This document shows positions 855 to 11,063 of a stretch of DNA of 11,063 bases, piece after piece (the first letter of the stretch is position 1; each line of letters starts with the position of its first letter). Source of the DNA: Anaerolineae bacterium (GTDB taxonomy: Bacteria; Chloroflexota; Anaerolineae; Epilineales; JAANWY01); contig JBHIAO010000171.1 of NCBI GenBank assembly GCA_046758565.1, positions 1-11,063 on the forward strand, in the 5' to 3' direction. Under the pieces are notes generated by a model that was given only the letters and a program-made list of their open reading frames with translations, did not search any database and was not told the origin of the DNA. The translations under genes and the position numbers were made by a program.

Positions 855-1089
855 ACCCTTTTCTCCTCTCTGTTCGCTCAGGTCGGTGCAATCTTGAGAC
901 ACAACGCGGGGAGCCAGCCCGGCAATGTCAGACGTACTACGACTTCGTTGGCACGCATCCCTCCTCTCCTTGGACTCTCTATTGCTGGGGTTTGGCAATT
1001 GTTTCGTAGGGTTCAACGACCTCAATCAGTATAGGCGAAAGTTTCAGCACAGTCAAACACCGGGACATGGAGCATCTCGCGGTGGCATC

Positions 1090-1118
1090 TTGTCAGCAGC
1101 CGAGAGCTGTGATATAAT
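1090..1118 (+). promoter_or_regulatory. Sigma70-type promoter: TTGTCA (1090-1095), 17-nt spacer, TGaTATAAT extended -10 (1110-1118); predicted TSS ~1125
   Basis: Direct read gives TTGTCA, then gcagccgagagctgtga (17 nt), then TATAAT. A TG sits 1 nt upstream of the -10 hexamer. The element is about 60 nt upstream of the GGAGG/GTG of the sORF at 1180. Confidence 0.5.
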
Positions 1119-1179
1119 TTGGATTGGGAACAGGTGTGAATGCAGGTCATCTGAGGCCTTGTCCGAAAGGAGGTCAAGT

Positions 1180-1323
1180 GTGACGCTTCCACGTCGCCGG
1201 CGCCAGAAGCGTGGGCAAAGGAAACAGCGTGACTGGAAGCAGATTGCTTTCTACGTGTTAAGTGCGTTGGTTGCCATCAGCATGGCGTCTGCCTACGCCC
1301 TCTCATACCTCGCGGGGCGGTGA
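1180..1323 (+). CDS. Small (47 aa) highly basic single-TM protein: MTLPRRRRQKRGQRKQRDWKQIAFYVLSALVAISMASAYALSYLAGR
   Basis: GGAGG at 1169-1173 lies 6 nt before an in-frame GTG at 1180, and a strong promoter sits upstream. The N-terminus is Arg/Lys-rich (12 of 19 residues) and is followed by about 22 hydrophobic residues. A TGA stop at 1321-1323 is followed directly by a large hairpin. It forms the 3' part of the 132-aa track ORF 925..1323, whose first ~85 codons look non-coding. Confidence 0.45.
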   Translation: MTLPRRRRQKRGQRKQRDWKQIAFYVLSALVAISMASAYALSYLAGR

Positions 1324-1332
1324 TCACTCACA

Positions 1333-1411
1333 GCCGGCGTAAAACGTAAAACGTGAAACGTGATGTCGCCATCTCGCACTCGCATCACGTTTCGCGTTTT
1401 ACGGCGCCCGG
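1333..1411. terminator. Long imperfect palindrome built from tandem heptamers (CGTAAAA CGTAAAA CGTGAAA CGTGATG / CATCACG TTTCGCG TTTTACG) with a GC clamp, placed between convergent genes; likely a bidirectional, U-tract-poor terminator or structured element
   Basis: The left arm (1338-1365) pairs with the right arm (1383-1403) with one wobble. An outer ccggcg/cgcccgg clamp bulges one extra heptamer. The loop is 17 nt. The element sits 10 nt after the sORF stop and 12 nt after the floT stop (1423-1425) on the opposite strand. Confidence 0.45.
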
Positions 1412-1422
1412 ATCGACTGATC

Positions 1423-2955
1423 CTATTCCTCAGGCTCGATCTCAACCTTTACCGGGCTTTCCCTGGATGCTCCACCATCGCCGGCTGCCCGCTTGAGGGC
1501 CGGCAGGTCCTGAATCGTGCGGATGATGTCGATGCCGGTGAGCGCCTCCACCGCCGCCGGCACCTGCGCGATGATTTCGGTGACGTCGCGGGTCACTCGG
1601 GAACTGCCGGCACCTCCGGCACTGTCACCGCCGATGACGACGATGCGATCGGTCTTGCTGAGCGGCTGAGCGATTGCGCCGGCCAACTCCGGCAGGCCGG
1701 CGAGCAACTGCTCGATGATGGCCGCCTGATTGTACATTGCCCAGGCTTCTGCCTTCTTCGCCTTGGCCTCGGCCTCAGCCAAACCCTGCTGCCGGATCAC
1801 TTCGGCCTGTGCCAGACCTTGTGCCTTGGCGACCTCAGCCTGTGCAATACCCCGTGCCCGGTTGGCATCGGCTTCACCCTCGCCGACCCGCCGCAACGCT
1901 GCCGCCTGACCTTCAGCCTCGGTCTCGGTCTGGAAGCGCTTGGCCTTGGCTAGCGTCTCAATACGGTACTGCTCGGCCTCGGCCGGCCTGCGGATCGTGG
2001 CCTCCAGCTCCTTCTCCTTGCGCAGTGCTTCCTGCTGCTGAACTTCGATCTGCTTCTGCTTGTCGATCACTTCGATCTGAACTTCTTCAGCCTTGACCTT
2101 CTGGTTGGTTATGGCCTGCTGGAGCGCGTAAGCCAGCTCAGCCTCGGCTGTCTGGCGATTGACCTCCGCGTCGTACTTGGCCTTTTGAACCTGGAAGTTC
2201 TTTTCGGCTTCGGCGATCTTGGTTTGTGCCAGGAATCGTGCTTCCTCACCCTCCTGCTCTGCCTCCGCCGAGCGAATCTTGGCATCCCGGGCCGCCAGTG
2301 CCTCACCGATTGCGGCGTCACGCTTGACTTCGGCCGTCCGGGCCTTGCCCAGGGCATCCAGGTAGCCTTCATCATCCCGGATGTCGCGGATGGTGAACGA
2401 GATAATCCCGAGACCCATGTTCGCCAGGTCGCCGGCGGCCACTTCCTGCACCTGCTGGGCGAAGGCATCCCGGTCTTTGTAGATCTCCTCGACTGACATC
2501 GTACCGAGGATGGCGCGTAGATGGCCCTCCAAAGTCTGTAGTGCCACCTGCTGGATCTCGCTCTCAGTCTTGCTCAGAAACTGTTCGGCCGCCGTGTAGA
2601 TCGAGACATCGTCGCCCCGGACTTTCACCTGGGCAACGCCATCGACGGTGACCGGAACACCTTTGACGGTGTAGACCTTCGGCGTCACCACATCAATGGT
2701 CATGATTTCCAACGAGAGATCGTCAACCCGTTCCACCACCGGCCAGATGAATGTACCACCACCCTTGACGATGCGAAAACCGACGGTCTCGGGCAGGCCG
2801 GTGACCGGGTTCACGATCTGACGCTTGCGGCCAGAAATGACCAGCACTTCGTTGGGGCCGACCTTCTTGTATCGCGTCGAATAGACGAACGCCAGTGTCA
2901 GCAATACAAACAACAGAGCGAAAATAGCGAAACTTGCACCTAGTAGTCCCACCAT
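1423..2955 (-). CDS. floT: Flotillin (SPFH/Band-7 domain protein, long FloT/YuaG type with Ala/Glu-rich coiled-coil repeats), ~510 aa
   Basis: The ORF has an N-terminal TM helix (LLGASFAIFALLFVLLTLAFVY) followed by an SPFH domain. A long EA-rich region (AEAEQEGEEA..., KAEAWAMYNQA) follows and the C-terminus ends in a flotillin-type tail. I chose the ATG at 2955..2953 as the start, because GGAGG at 2967..2963 lies 7 nt upstream of it. The track ORF starts 6 codons earlier, at 2973, and that earlier ATG overlaps the RBS. The gene is immediately downstream of an NfeD-like gene, as in yuaF-floT. Confidence 0.9.
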   Translation of the reverse strand: MVGLLGASFAIFALLFVLLTLAFVYSTRYKKVGPNEVLVISGRKRQIVNPVTGLPETVGFRIVKGGGTFIWPVVERVDDLSLEIMTIDVVTPKVYTVKGVPVTVDGVAQVKVRGDDVSIYTAAEQFLSKTESEIQQVALQTLEGHLRAILGTMSVEEIYKDRDAFAQQVQEVAAGDLANMGLGIISFTIRDIRDDEGYLDALGKARTAEVKRDAAIGEALAARDAKIRSAEAEQEGEEARFLAQTKIAEAEKNFQVQKAKYDAEVNRQTAEAELAYALQQAITNQKVKAEEVQIEVIDKQKQIEVQQQEALRKEKELEATIRRPAEAEQYRIETLAKAKRFQTETEAEGQAAALRRVGEGEADANRARGIAQAEVAKAQGLAQAEVIRQQGLAEAEAKAKKAEAWAMYNQAAIIEQLLAGLPELAGAIAQPLSKTDRIVVIGGDSAGGAGSSRVTRDVTEIIAQVPAAVEALTGIDIIRTIQDLPALKRAAGDGGASRESPVKVEIEPEE

Positions 2956-2981
2956 CTTTATGCCTCCTACCATAAGTCGAA

Positions 2982-3059
2982 GTGATCAGTAATCAGTAAT
3001 CAGTGATCAGTAGTCAAAATCTGAAACTGATTACTGATTACTGATCACTGATTACTGAC
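2982..3059. repeat. ~78-bp palindrome made of tandem 7-bp repeats: (GTRATCA)x5, loop aaatctgaaa, (CTGATYA)x4+; predicted ~31-bp hairpin in the nfeD-floT intercistronic region
   Basis: The left arm is GTGATCA GTAATCA GTAATCA GTGATCA GTAGTCA (2982-3016). The right arm is CTGATTA CTGATTA CTGATCA CTGATTA CTGAC (3027-3059). The arms are reverse complements with about 3 non-Watson-Crick positions. The right arm overlaps the last 5 codons of nfeD, and the left arm ends 15 nt before the floT RBS. Confidence 0.6.
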
Positions 3060-3650
3060 TTCATCAAGTGGCCTAACGATTGCCACGTTCCCGACTATGC
3101 GTTCGATCGTGACCACCGTGCCCCGCGGGATTGACTGCCCGCCGGCTGCTCGGGCGCTGGTTGTGACCCGCCCGCCACGCGCCACGAAGGCCACCTCTCC
3201 CAGCCGGCCCGGCGCGATGCGTGTGATCACCTCGCCTGTTGCTCCGATGACATGCGCCGCCGTCACCTCACTGGAACTCTGCGGCGCAATCAGGAAATAT
3301 CCGAAGGCGAAGTGTGCTATCGCAGCGATGACCAGGGCGCCGGCCGCCGCCCAGAGCAAACTGGCCTGGGCCGAGACGTTGAACAATCCCGTCGAAATGA
3401 GTCCGAATGCGCCGAACGCGGTGATGAAACTGGCGATGGTCACCGGGCTCAAAGAAGTGACGCTCACGTCGCCGTGCTCGAAGGAAATATCATGGCCGCC
3501 GCTGAGGTCGACGTCGCCACCACCGAAGCCGAAGTCATGCAACTCGCCGGCAACCAGGATGACGACGGCATAGACGACGCCGACGATGAGCAACGCGAAA
3601 TACAGGCAGCTCAATGTCGAGAGATTTGCCAGGTCCGTCAACTGTGTCAT
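3045..3650 (-). CDS. NfeD-like (YuaF-like short NfeD homolog) membrane protein, the usual flotillin operon partner, 201 aa
   Basis: The N-terminal half is hydrophobic, with TM helices (LYFALLIVGVVYAVVILVAG; FITAFGAFGLISTGLF; LLWAAAGALVIAAIAHFAFGYFLI). The C-terminal ~70 aa (VIGATGEVITRIAPGRLGEVAFVARGGRVTTSARAAGGQSIPRGTVVTIERIVGNVAIVRP) fits an OB-fold beta-barrel. The gene is directly upstream of, and co-oriented with, flotillin. Established knowledge: nfeD and flotillin genes are syntenic and co-transcribed in many bacteria. Confidence 0.8.
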   Translation of the reverse strand: MTQLTDLANLSTLSCLYFALLIVGVVYAVVILVAGELHDFGFGGGDVDLSGGHDISFEHGDVSVTSLSPVTIASFITAFGAFGLISTGLFNVSAQASLLWAAAGALVIAAIAHFAFGYFLIAPQSSSEVTAAHVIGATGEVITRIAPGRLGEVAFVARGGRVTTSARAAGGQSIPRGTVVTIERIVGNVAIVRPLDEVSNQ

Positions 3651-8507: not shown

Positions 8508-8542
8508 AGTAGCTGGGGGCTGACAGCCCCCAGCTACTTTTT
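8508..8542. terminator. Perfect 13-bp GC-rich stem-loop (AGTAGCTGGGGGC-tgaca-GCCCCCAGCTACT) flanked by A5 and T4, in the livK-livH intercistronic gap; candidate partial (attenuating) intra-operon terminator / mRNA stabiliser
   Basis: On the minus-strand mRNA the stem is followed by AGUUCGUUUUG, an interrupted U tract. On the plus strand it is followed by TTTT. It lies between the livK stop (8601..8599) and the livH start (8479). Confidence 0.5.
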
Positions 8543-10201: not shown

Positions 10202-11063
10202 TTCGAAAGCCCTCCGTACACATCACGCTTCGGGCAGTGGGGGTCGCTCTCGGCGAAACTGCCACCGAAGGCCATGACCACTGCCGGGCAGCCTTTGCAC
10301 AGCTCCAGGTAGGAGCACGCTCTGCACCGACCTCGCATCTCACCCTCTAGTTGCCGGAATCGCTGGAACACCTTCGAGCCCCGCCAGGCCCGCGTGAAGT
10401 CCCCCTGGCCCACATCCGACCAGCGTACGTGACTACACGGCAGCACCCGGCCGTCCTGGAGAACGGTCACAAACTTCCTCGCAGCGCAGCAACCCCACAC
10501 CCCGGCCGCGTACAGTCGCTCCGGGGGCCGGTCGGTGAGGAGGAAGGTGAGGGAGGCATCCAGTGTGGTCTTGCACTCTGGCGACAGACCTGGGAGGTCT
10601 CCTCGTTCTCCAACATGATCAGATGCGTTGGCTGAAGCTGTTGTTGAGCTTGCGGAATGCCATGTGGAGACCTCCGAGGTCTTGACTCGGTCTTTGGCTG
10701 TGGATTGTAGCTTGCGTAACACTCTCCGCACAACCCGATAACCCTCGGCATCCAACGATTCCCGCTCCAGCCAGTCCCCGTCCGTGGTCGGAGGCTTGGG
10801 GCGCAGGAGGTTGACGGTCGCGGCCCCCAGCCGCCGGCCCAGACGGATGACCTGCTCCAACTCCGCCACGCTGCTCCGGGTGATGAGGAAGTTGATGCCA
10901 AAGCGCAGGCCGGCCTGCCGGCAGGTGTGAATGGCTGCCATGGCGCCCCCGAAGTTGGGCCGGGTGGTCGCATTTGTTTCCTCCGTCGCCCCGTTGAGGG
11001 AGATTTGCACCTGACCCACGCCGGCCTCTTTCAGCGCCACCGCCAGGTCCGGCGTTAGCCGGT
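10168..11063 (-). CDS. Radical SAM / SPASM-domain protein (peptide-modifying maturase class), 5' partial; the N-terminal CxxxCxxC region lies beyond the window
   Basis: The frame stays open to the window edge. The first residues read ..LTPDLAVALKEAGVGQVQISLNGATEETNATTRPNFGGAMAAIHTCRQAGLRFGINFLITRSSVAELEQVIRLGRRLGAATVNLL, the end of the rSAM TIM barrel. The C-terminal SPASM signature is GVWGCCAARKFVTVLQDGRVLPC ... FTRAWRGSKVFQRFRQLEGEMRGRCRACSYLELCKGCPA ... DPHCP. This gives auxiliary-cluster cysteines in a CxxCx5CxxC arrangement. The stop TAG is at 10170..10168. Confidence 0.8.
   Translation of the reverse strand, partial: RLTPDLAVALKEAGVGQVQISLNGATEETNATTRPNFGGAMAAIHTCRQAGLRFGINFLITRSSVAELEQVIRLGRRLGAATVNLLRPKPPTTDGDWLERESLDAEGYRVVRRVLRKLQSTAKDRVKTSEVSTWHSASSTTASANASDHVGERGDLPGLSPECKTTLDASLTFLLTDRPPERLYAAGVWGCCAARKFVTVLQDGRVLPCSHVRWSDVGQGDFTRAWRGSKVFQRFRQLEGEMRGRCRACSYLELCKGCPAVVMAFGGSFAESDPHCPKRDVYGGLSKCPPRPHNLLT

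Follow-up and report, generated by a model that had tools for sequence, protein, structure and literature searches.

Heptanucleotide Repeats and Related Hairpins

In cyanobacteria, sequences of the short tandemly repeated repetitive (STRR) type with 7-bp units fold into hairpins between hupS and hupL and may make the transcript more stable, and the functions that have been proposed for STRRs include transcript stability or translational coupling (PMC2670836). A hairpin of tandem heptamers is also found at positions 1333–1411 of an 11,063-nucleotide stretch of DNA from an Anaerolineae bacterium (contig JBHIAO010000171.1; the whole stretch is referred to here as the window), where it lies downstream of the flotillin gene floT. 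With moderate confidence, this element can be regarded as one copy of a lineage-wide class of heptanucleotide simple sequence repeat (SSR) hairpins of the form (CGTRAAA)n-loop-(TTTYACG)n, abundant in Chloroflexota genomes, which would be the counterpart of the cyanobacterial STRRs and a probable protector of RNA 3′ ends, comparable to the repetitive extragenic palindromic (REP) sequences of Escherichia coli. The features that define a heptamer-SSR hairpin, i.e. tandem units, an intergenic location, dispersal (here at the level of the lineage) and an inverted arrangement, are all present in the window element.

The resemblance to the STRRs comprises the tandem 7-nt units, their intergenic location, the many copies and the several unit types per genome, as well as the use of inverted arrays as hairpins between the genes of one operon, for which a second heptamer hairpin at the nfeD–floT junction of the window is the counterpart. 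Strict membership in the cyanobacterial STRRs was nevertheless rejected, since the host is an Anaerolineae-like member of the Chloroflexota and the units differ, being CGTRAAA and CAGTRAT here, whereas the STRR units named by Mazel et al. in 1990 are reportedly CCCCAGT, TTGGTCA, and CAACAGT. A further difference is that the rule of arm polarity seen here (see below) was not found described for STRRs.

Heptameric SSRs have also been described in Xanthomonas and Nostoc (GGGAATC/GGGGAYT), where they are over-represented in intergenic DNA, sometimes as inverted pairs, and stay between the same genes in related strains while their length and sequence vary extensively; a suggested origin is slippage tied to the polymerase footprint (PMC4692102). 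Such G-rich units are able to form G-quadruplexes, whereas the A/T-rich units described here contain an ACGT core and give normal Watson–Crick hairpins. The TAACTGA repeats of Beggiatoaceae, Cyanobacteria, and Bacteroidetes (MacGregor 2015) are likewise intergenic and mixed with other heptamers, contigs often break at them, and in one orientation their arrays carry stop codons in all frames (PMC4679880). The TAACTGA unit resembles that of the second hairpin of the window (TTACTGA/TCACTGA), but the TAACTGA arrays are almost all direct repeats, with one inverted case in the BOGUAY genome, and lie a few nucleotides upstream of start codons. Membership in this group was rejected as well, the window element being inverted and located downstream of two genes, and no tandem TAACTGA was present in any locus examined. 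A literature search combining heptamer-repeat terms with Chloroflexi found no paper describing such repeats.

The most likely working model for the element is offered by the E. coli REP sequences and bacterial interspersed mosaic elements, with which it shares the character of a dispersed extragenic palindrome lacking a U-tract. REPs have a conserved, non-repetitive sequence and are mobilized by RAYT transposases, whereas here only the 7-nt unit is common between copies and the arms are tandem arrays. Hairpins that are rich in GC and lack a U-tract, E. coli REP being an example, stabilize RNA 3′ ends without terminating transcription, and mRNA 3′ ends also arise by trimming back after Rho-dependent termination (PMC12642595).

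Structure of the Element Downstream of floT

The 5′ arm of the hairpin (1338–1365) consists of four units, CGTAAAA (1338–1344), CGTAAAA (1345–1351), CGTGAAA (1352–1358), and CGTGATG (1359–1365), and is followed by a 17-nt loop (1366–1382, tcgccatctcgcactcg) and by a 3′ arm (1383–1403) of three units, CATCACG (1383–1389), TTTCGCG (1390–1396), and TTTTACG (1397–1403). This architecture had been read from the bare letters in an earlier note on this DNA and is exact in the sequence. The G+C clamp and the single bulged extra heptamer reported in the same note are borne out by both sequence and fold: the outer clamp, in which 1334–1340 are paired with 1401–1411, belongs to the whole element of 1333–1411 (fold of 1325–1420), and the extra heptamer is the first unit of the left arm (1338–1344), whose AAAA is bulged. 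The repeat search places the inverted arms at 1345–1365 and 1383–1403, each 21 nt long, 95% complementary and separated by 17 nt, giving a stem of 21 bp plus clamp with ∼43% G+C, in which one position of the 3′ arm is a G–U pair in the RNA of the + strand and a C–A mismatch in that of the − strand.

The RNA of 1325–1420 folds stably on both strands, with −44.1 kcal/mol (z −6.1) on the + strand and −40.5 kcal/mol (z −3.5) on the − strand, and 0 of 200 shuffles folded as well on either strand. For the array at 1338–1365, Tandem Repeats Finder (TRF) reports a period of 7, 3.4 copies and 94% matches, so that at least three tandem copies are present. In a period scan of the whole window, self-similarity is strong at period 7 alone (1336–1365, 2980–3016, and 3024–3060) and nowhere at periods 5, 6, 8, 9, or 10. 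The hairpin downstream of floT is confirmed as real. An Rfam scan of 900–3300 gave nothing above the gathering threshold, and the microRNA-precursor matches in it (22.4 against 67 and 32.9 against 89 bits) were discarded as generic long-hairpin artefacts.

The second heptamer hairpin, (CAGTRAT)5-loop-(ATYACTG)5, occupies 2981–3058 at the nfeD–floT junction and was recovered by sequence, fold, inverted-repeat, and TRF analysis. Its arms of 31 nt are 90% complementary and its fold has z −8.5 and −9.8 on the two strands, in agreement with the analogous architecture already noticed for this upstream palindrome. It ends 13 nt ahead of the floT ribosome-binding site and overlaps the last 14 nt of nfeD (3045–3058), the TGA stop codon of which lies within a heptamer unit. 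The two hairpins had been said to delimit floT exactly; they do bracket the gene, but only within ∼11–25 nt and with the upstream one extending into the end of nfeD. The nfeD C-terminus itself derives from the array, reading KPLDEVSNQ-stop in the window as compared with KPLEE-stop in the related locus L002 (loci are labelled L###, L007–L126 and L207–L303 being the sets that underlie the polarity counts below), and L003 and L004 are listed alongside the window as having a heptamer-encoded nfeD end. As the array codes for the last codons and the stop of nfeD, the native gene end has been replaced by it. The CAGTRAT unit is found at the matching junction position in L003, as remnants in L004/L005 and L006, dispersed in L016, L106, L118, and L123 (among the CGTRAAA matches listed), and in 97 stretches of IMG/VR viral contigs. 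In some of these viral contigs (L238, L283, L293, L276, L227), the CAGTRAT hairpin recurs every 1–2 kb; the CAGTRAT-bearing contigs have a median G+C of ∼61%, the loop is often AAAGGCAAAAA, and unit and architecture match those of the nfeD–floT hairpin.

Distribution of the CGTRAAA Family

The family was followed in a scan of one genome per species (596 Gb) with the pattern CGTRAAACGTRAAACGTRA, which comprises three CGTRAAA units. At least 120 loci carry this pattern, as compared with ∼35 calculated by chance for 596 Gb at uniform base composition; all proportions given for these loci hold among the matches listed and are indicative only. Seventy-two of the 120 are labelled Chloroflexota (Anaerolineae, Chloroflexia, Thermoflexales, Ardenticatenaceae, Caldilineaceae, and others), and the remaining ones belong to Verrucomicrobiota, Acidobacteriota, Poribacteria, Bacteroidota, and other phyla. 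For 56 of 141 arrays, a partner in inverted orientation lies no more than 150 nt away, versus 1 in a complement-only control. The 52 non-redundant hairpins have mostly 3–8 units per arm and mostly 0–18-nt loops, and their units are mixtures of CGTGAAA, CGTAAAA, CGTGATG, and variants. The window copy is a typical member as regards its units, the length of its arms, its small loop, and its polarity.

Members of the family are scattered, lie for the most part between genes, and have no link to floT. Although long open reading frames (ORFs) make up 87% of the sequence, 102 of the 141 arrays are intergenic or at ORF ends, and the other 39 lie inside ORFs only in antisense; some of these antisense ORFs may be spurious, because TTTYACG has no stop codon. 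Short distances from stop codons to CGTRAAA are an artefact, because this unit carries stops in all three frames. The gene context of the 77 classifiable sites is tandem in 55, convergent in 12, and divergent in 10. A tblastn search with FloT, NfeD, and the product of the small ORF (sORF) that converges on floT against the 120 listed loci found floT encoded in a single one of them (L047, Verrucomicrobia), where nfeD–floT lies 1–2.4 kb from the arrays; a general association of CGTRAAA arrays with floT was rejected on this count, the arrays of the one case not being adjacent. Such widespread palindromes with no association to floT are the outcome that the earlier note had itself named as refuting its finding. 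A typical CGTRAAA hairpin is also present in L053, a different contig of the metagenome-assembled genome (MAG) GCA_046756905.1, which carries the closest floT relative; it sits between a methyltransferase gene and an ECF sigma-factor gene, in a divergent region.

Heptamer arrays other than the seed pattern are abundant in the listed loci, with 118 at period 7, 49 at period 14, and 25 at period 21, as compared with 6 at period 6 and 25 at period 8 (TRF score ≥40), and a lower-threshold run distinguished 151 different 7-mer units among them. The orientation of single arrays relative to neighbouring genes is near even, with 27 versus 23 at 3′ ends and 18 versus 20 at 5′ ends, and an orientation bias was accordingly rejected. 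The loop-proximal unit is slightly richer in G+C (0.54 versus 0.41–0.45), an effect too weak for a GC gradient along the stem to be built on.

Several composite arrangements were noticed among the loci. In MAGs of Ardenticatenaceae, Promineifilaceae, and Leptofilum, a longer conserved palindrome is built around the CGTRAAA hairpin (L022 6595–6753, L035 3867–4025, L090 2344–2502, L104 103–297, L109 12–170), with flanks resembling GGGTCTTTGGGATTTTGTGGGGTTT ... GGCTTGTCAACCC and a loop near CCAGAGAG; this looks like a dispersed repeat of the REP type or of the MITE (miniature inverted-repeat transposable element) type. In Chloroflexia/Chloroflexota MAGs, inverted CGTGAAA arrays flank a conserved segment of ∼280 nt (..CTGTCATC ... 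GATGACAGGG..; L008 7439–7884, L009 3143–3579, L093 3823–3988, L085 7815–8000), which points to a composite element whose termini are heptamer arrays. Elsewhere, TTTYACG arrays stand directly after canonical GC hairpins in place of the T-tract (L011 3391–3549 and L097 799–957; e.g. GCGGGGCTTTTCACGTTTCACGTTTTACG), a hint that arrays may grow out of terminator T-tracts. Contigs also start or end inside heptamer arrays (L001 at 1–30, L006 at 1–90, L010, L057, L117), which implies that heptamer repeats break short-read assemblies of these lineages; in L044, L085, and L120, the array is at the edge of an 8-kb slice taken from a longer contig.

Orthologous Sites Downstream of floT

The best FloT homologues are encoded by Anaerolineae MAGs and have 85–91% identity; an identical FloT is recorded only on one Logan contig of 2.3 kb (SRR29324601), the end of which falls within the upstream hairpin. 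The window has a CGTRAAA hairpin of 4 + 3 units after floT and a CAGTRAT hairpin at the nfeD–floT junction. L003 (FloT 90%) has the same two types, with 2 + 3 units and a loop unrelated to that of the window in the hairpin after floT. In L002 (FloT 91%), floT is followed by a GC stem and T-run and the junction holds a different long imperfect hairpin; in L004 (FloT 85%), a GC stem and T-run follow floT and remnant CAGTRAT units mark the junction; and in L006 (FloT 86%), two GC-rich stem-loops without a T-run are found after floT and arrays of both unit types at the junction. Among the more divergent loci, L127 (FloT 71%) has a CGTRAAA-type hairpin after floT, L138 (FloT 70%) a direct CGTRAAA array and then a canonical terminator, and L130 (FloT 68%) a different heptamer array. 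Most other relatives have a canonical terminator (GC stem and T-run) right after floT, and more distant nfeD–floT operons have short junctions without hairpins. The MAG of L002, the closest floT relative, ends its own floT with a canonical terminator and carries a heptamer hairpin elsewhere (L053).

The site after floT differs between relatives, with a hairpin in L003 and L127 and a canonical terminator in L002 and L004. This agrees with the terminator-type position that had been assigned to the element, as orthologous loci carry canonical GC-stem and T-run terminators at the equivalent site. The heptamer hairpin thus takes the place of a terminator, and at short evolutionary distances the one can be exchanged for the other. 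In an unbiased floT-anchored metagenome sample (80 loci, 524 kb), 7 period-7 arrays were found, 4 of them within ∼200 nt downstream of floT in 3 loci (L127, L130, L138); period 7 is not enriched overall, and a heptamer enrichment at floT loci was rejected on this basis. The lack of enrichment implies that heptamer richness belongs to particular lineages and not to floT neighbourhoods.

Proposed Role as a 3′-End Barrier

A terminator scan of 1333–1411 returned no terminator-like site, the U-tract that it requires (≥5 U in 8 after the stem) being absent; it has to be noted that the scanner accepts loops of 3–8 nt and that the loop here is 17 nt. The element had been described as lacking a U tract, which is true in the canonical sense of the scan, but on the floT-sense strand the bulged extra unit puts UUUUA directly after the 21-bp inner stem. 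Across the family, the stem is followed by TTTT in 1 of 31 CGTRAAA hairpins (among the matches listed) and in none of 43 CAGTRAT hairpins, with a T fraction of 0.27–0.33 after family stems (for CGTRAAA, again among the matches listed). The likeness to a bidirectional intrinsic terminator lies in the position between converging genes, at a site where relatives have canonical terminators, and in the A-rich 5′ arm and U-rich 3′ arm on both strands; the differences are the missing U-tract, the 17-nt loop, and the stem of low G+C. A canonical bidirectional intrinsic terminator as the main mechanism was dropped, because no U-tract follows the family hairpins, and the same absence favours a 3′-end barrier or processing over classical intrinsic termination.

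In the model favoured here, arrays would grow, shrink, and drift through replication slippage in whole units, of which the 4 + 3 units of the window and the 2 + 3 units of L003, with their unrelated loops, may be an example. The element would be transcribed at the 3′ ends of both the nfeD–floT operon and the converging sORF, and a stem of ∼21–25 bp would be formed on either transcript. It would act mainly in the manner of an E. coli REP, as a barrier to 3′-to-5′ exonucleases that fixes mRNA 3′ ends, with read-through transcription being terminated further on before the barrier comes into action; weak bidirectional termination, aided by the U-rich 3′ arm, may occur too. The nfeD–floT hairpin would likewise be an intercistronic stabilizer or processing site. 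For 1333–1411 we thus infer a role as a REP-like 3′-end barrier and perhaps as a weak bidirectional terminator.

Several observations weigh against this interpretation. A 3′-end role cannot apply at the 10 divergent sites among the 77 or at L053, and the presence of family members in divergent regions means that the family may have no single function. The near-invariant polarity of the hairpins is predicted by neither slippage alone nor a simple exonuclease barrier. CGTRAAA-type arrays directly follow floT in four relatives, the most divergent at 70% identity, which hints at a positional persistence not fully separable from chance in heptamer-rich genomes; this recurrence is confounded, because the contigs are 2.6–3.3-kb pieces of such genomes, whose sampled intergenic DNA consists largely of the flanks of floT. 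Finally, the source genome is covered by the 11-kb window and one 2.3-kb contig, and dispersal is thus shown for the lineage.

Polarity of the Hairpins

CGTRAAA forms the 5′ arm in 54 of 56 hairpins and, by an independent TRF-based count, in 27 of 27 (both among the matches listed), while CAGTRAT makes up the 5′ arm of all 141 hairpins counted in the IMG/VR viral contigs. Both window hairpins follow this rule, with the purine-rich arm at the 5′ side. As the order A-loop-A′ is identical on both strands, the polarity is intrinsic to the hairpin. Of 18 hairpins built from other units, 14 have more G than C in the 5′ arm, 3 have more C than G, and 1 has equal numbers (one-sided binomial ∼0.006); a rule of A>T was rejected for these hairpins, since it holds only 11:6 as against 14:3 for G>C. 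The polarity fits a need for a pyrimidine-rich, weakly hybridizing 3′ arm, i.e. a terminator-like logic, or a polar origin or spread.

This leads to a different model, possible though on the unlikely side, in which the heptamer hairpins would be a polar modular class common to Chloroflexota chromosomes and some viral contigs, either as self-propagating palindromes recognized in the form of single-stranded hairpins or as “zipper” bidirectional terminators. In the latter case, the pyrimidine-rich 3′ arm would give a weak RNA:DNA hybrid, the purine-rich 5′ arm would strip this hybrid unit by unit, and the strength of termination would be tuned via gain or loss of whole units.

Alternative Explanations

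Arrays and their inverted copies could also be a by-product of slippage that accumulates in weakly selected intergenic DNA and has no function at the RNA level. This explanation is unlikely, although it would account for arrays in all gene contexts (tandem, convergent, and divergent), for the even orientation of single arrays relative to neighbouring genes, and for the extreme diversity of units; the published heptamer excess has been attributed to the polymerase footprint (PMC4692102), and the TTTYACG arrays directly after canonical terminators (L011, L097) suggest seeding from T-tracts. Neutral slippage, however, predicts neither the polarity rule nor the retention of complementary arms where loops have fully diverged, as in the window and L003, and the 99-nt gap downstream of floT contains no alternative terminator or 3′ hairpin.

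A mobile or templated palindrome of the REP/MITE kind, spread by an enzyme that acts on single-stranded DNA hairpins (a RAYT/IS200-type Y1 transposase or similar), would explain the near-invariant polarity of both unit families. It would also be in keeping with the longer conserved palindrome in some Anaerolineae (L022, L035, L090, L104, L109), with the ∼280-nt segment flanked by inverted arrays in Chloroflexia MAGs (L008, L009, L093), with presence or absence at one site varying between close relatives, and with the recurrence of the hairpin every 1–2 kb in some viral contigs. This explanation is nonetheless rather improbable for the window copy, which shares neither flanks nor loop with other copies but only the heptamer units. 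No target-site duplication can be defined, as the orthologous intergenic regions do not align; the number and order of units vary between arms and copies, as slippage predicts; no transposase gene is found among the 10 window ORFs scanned against Pfam; and more than 150 different units (among the matches listed) are hard to square with one recognition system.

The earlier note had suggested a paired terminator/processing system that gives a discrete stable floT mRNA. If dedicated to floT, such a system might work, for instance, through RNase III processing of the long stems upstream and termination downstream, and would have been selected by the needs of flotillin expression. In the window, floT is tightly enclosed by the two hairpins, and L003 retains both; some strong hairpin is present at the junction of L002 too, remnants are seen in L004 and L006, and 4 of the 7 period-7 arrays of the floT-anchored sample are close downstream of floT. 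Stems of 21–31 bp are, moreover, long enough for RNase III. Against this, hairpins of matching types are found at many unrelated loci and genomes, CGTRAAA arrays occur in at least 120 loci (with floT in 1 of the 120 listed), the MAG of L002 has a canonical terminator after floT, distant nfeD–floT operons have short, hairpin-free junctions, and the floT-adjacent arrays are on very short contigs of heptamer-rich genomes. A dedicated system is accordingly improbable, and floT comes to be bracketed as a local consequence of family members at two neighbouring intergenic sites. The other explanation of that note, the footprint of a repeat family that targets this locus, is supported as regards the repeat family but not as regards the targeting.

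A protein-binding array in duplex DNA, in which an ACGT core every 7 bp (GATC/TGATCA in the second hairpin) would phase a DNA-binding or nucleoid protein, agrees with the self-complementary core of both unit families, whose arms differ only in the spacer, and with TRF arrays at periods 14 and 21, i.e. two and three heptamers, but is barely credible, as neither a candidate protein nor a known motif turned up, these cores are missing from the more than 150 other units (among the matches listed), and hairpin arrangement and polarity are needless for binding to duplex DNA.

Genes Surrounding the Element

The element lies between two converging genes. On the − strand, floT (1423–2955) encodes a flotillin of 510 aa with an SPFH/Band 7 domain (Pfam PF01145, 4.9e-28; PF15975), the homologues of which are named flotillin, and is preceded by the ribosome-binding site GGAGG at 2963–2967 and by an nfeD-like gene (3045–3650, − strand; Pfam PF01957, weak), whose orthologues are called NfeD_TM. 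On the + strand, a conserved sORF of 47 aa (1180–1323) converges on floT; that it is real, as had been assumed, is supported by 60–79% identity in three relatives (L002, L003, L006) and by a gene called at its position in four related loci. Its product, a predicted small membrane protein, has a basic N-terminus and a single hydrophobic segment; every close relative encodes it opposite floT, and it may be functionally tied to the nfeD–floT locus. The stops of floT (1423) and of the sORF (1323) are separated by 99 nt, a gap that is mostly filled by the hairpin; 1333–1411 is intergenic and is the sole structured element there, and neither the sequence nor the terminator scan gave another terminator-like signal in this gap. 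A match to a sigma-70-like promoter, TTGTCA-17-TATAAT with TG, precedes the sORF at 1090–1118 on the + strand (a consensus match only), and a promoter scan gave a divergent promoter-like site at 1056–1028 on the − strand.

Farther upstream of nfeD–floT, an amidohydrolase gene, a liv-type ABC transporter, and a SPASM-domain gene (Pfam) are all encoded on the − strand. A G+C-rich hairpin with a perfect 15-bp stem and a T-rich stretch behind it occurs at 8508–8538, between the gene of the substrate-binding protein and the first permease gene of the liv-type ABC operon. It is a canonical terminator or attenuator, so that the source genome uses ordinary terminators too. Inside the SPASM-domain ORF, a 17-nt inverted repeat at 10586–10682 (AGACCTGGGAGGTCTCC/GGAGACCTCCGAGGTCT) is 94% complementary, with 63 nt between its arms.

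Implications for Chloroflexota

For annotators, the consequence is that such hairpins are to be read as STRR-like repeats and not as gene-specific regulators; the bracketing of floT, being a local coincidence of a common repeat class, has little import for the window. At a wider scale, heptamer-repeat hairpins seem to have a second large reservoir in the Chloroflexota, alongside that in the cyanobacteria, and assemblies broken at these repeats may contribute to the fragmentation of Anaerolineae MAGs. The part worth following is the strict arm polarity, which provides a testable handle on what STRR-type repeats do.

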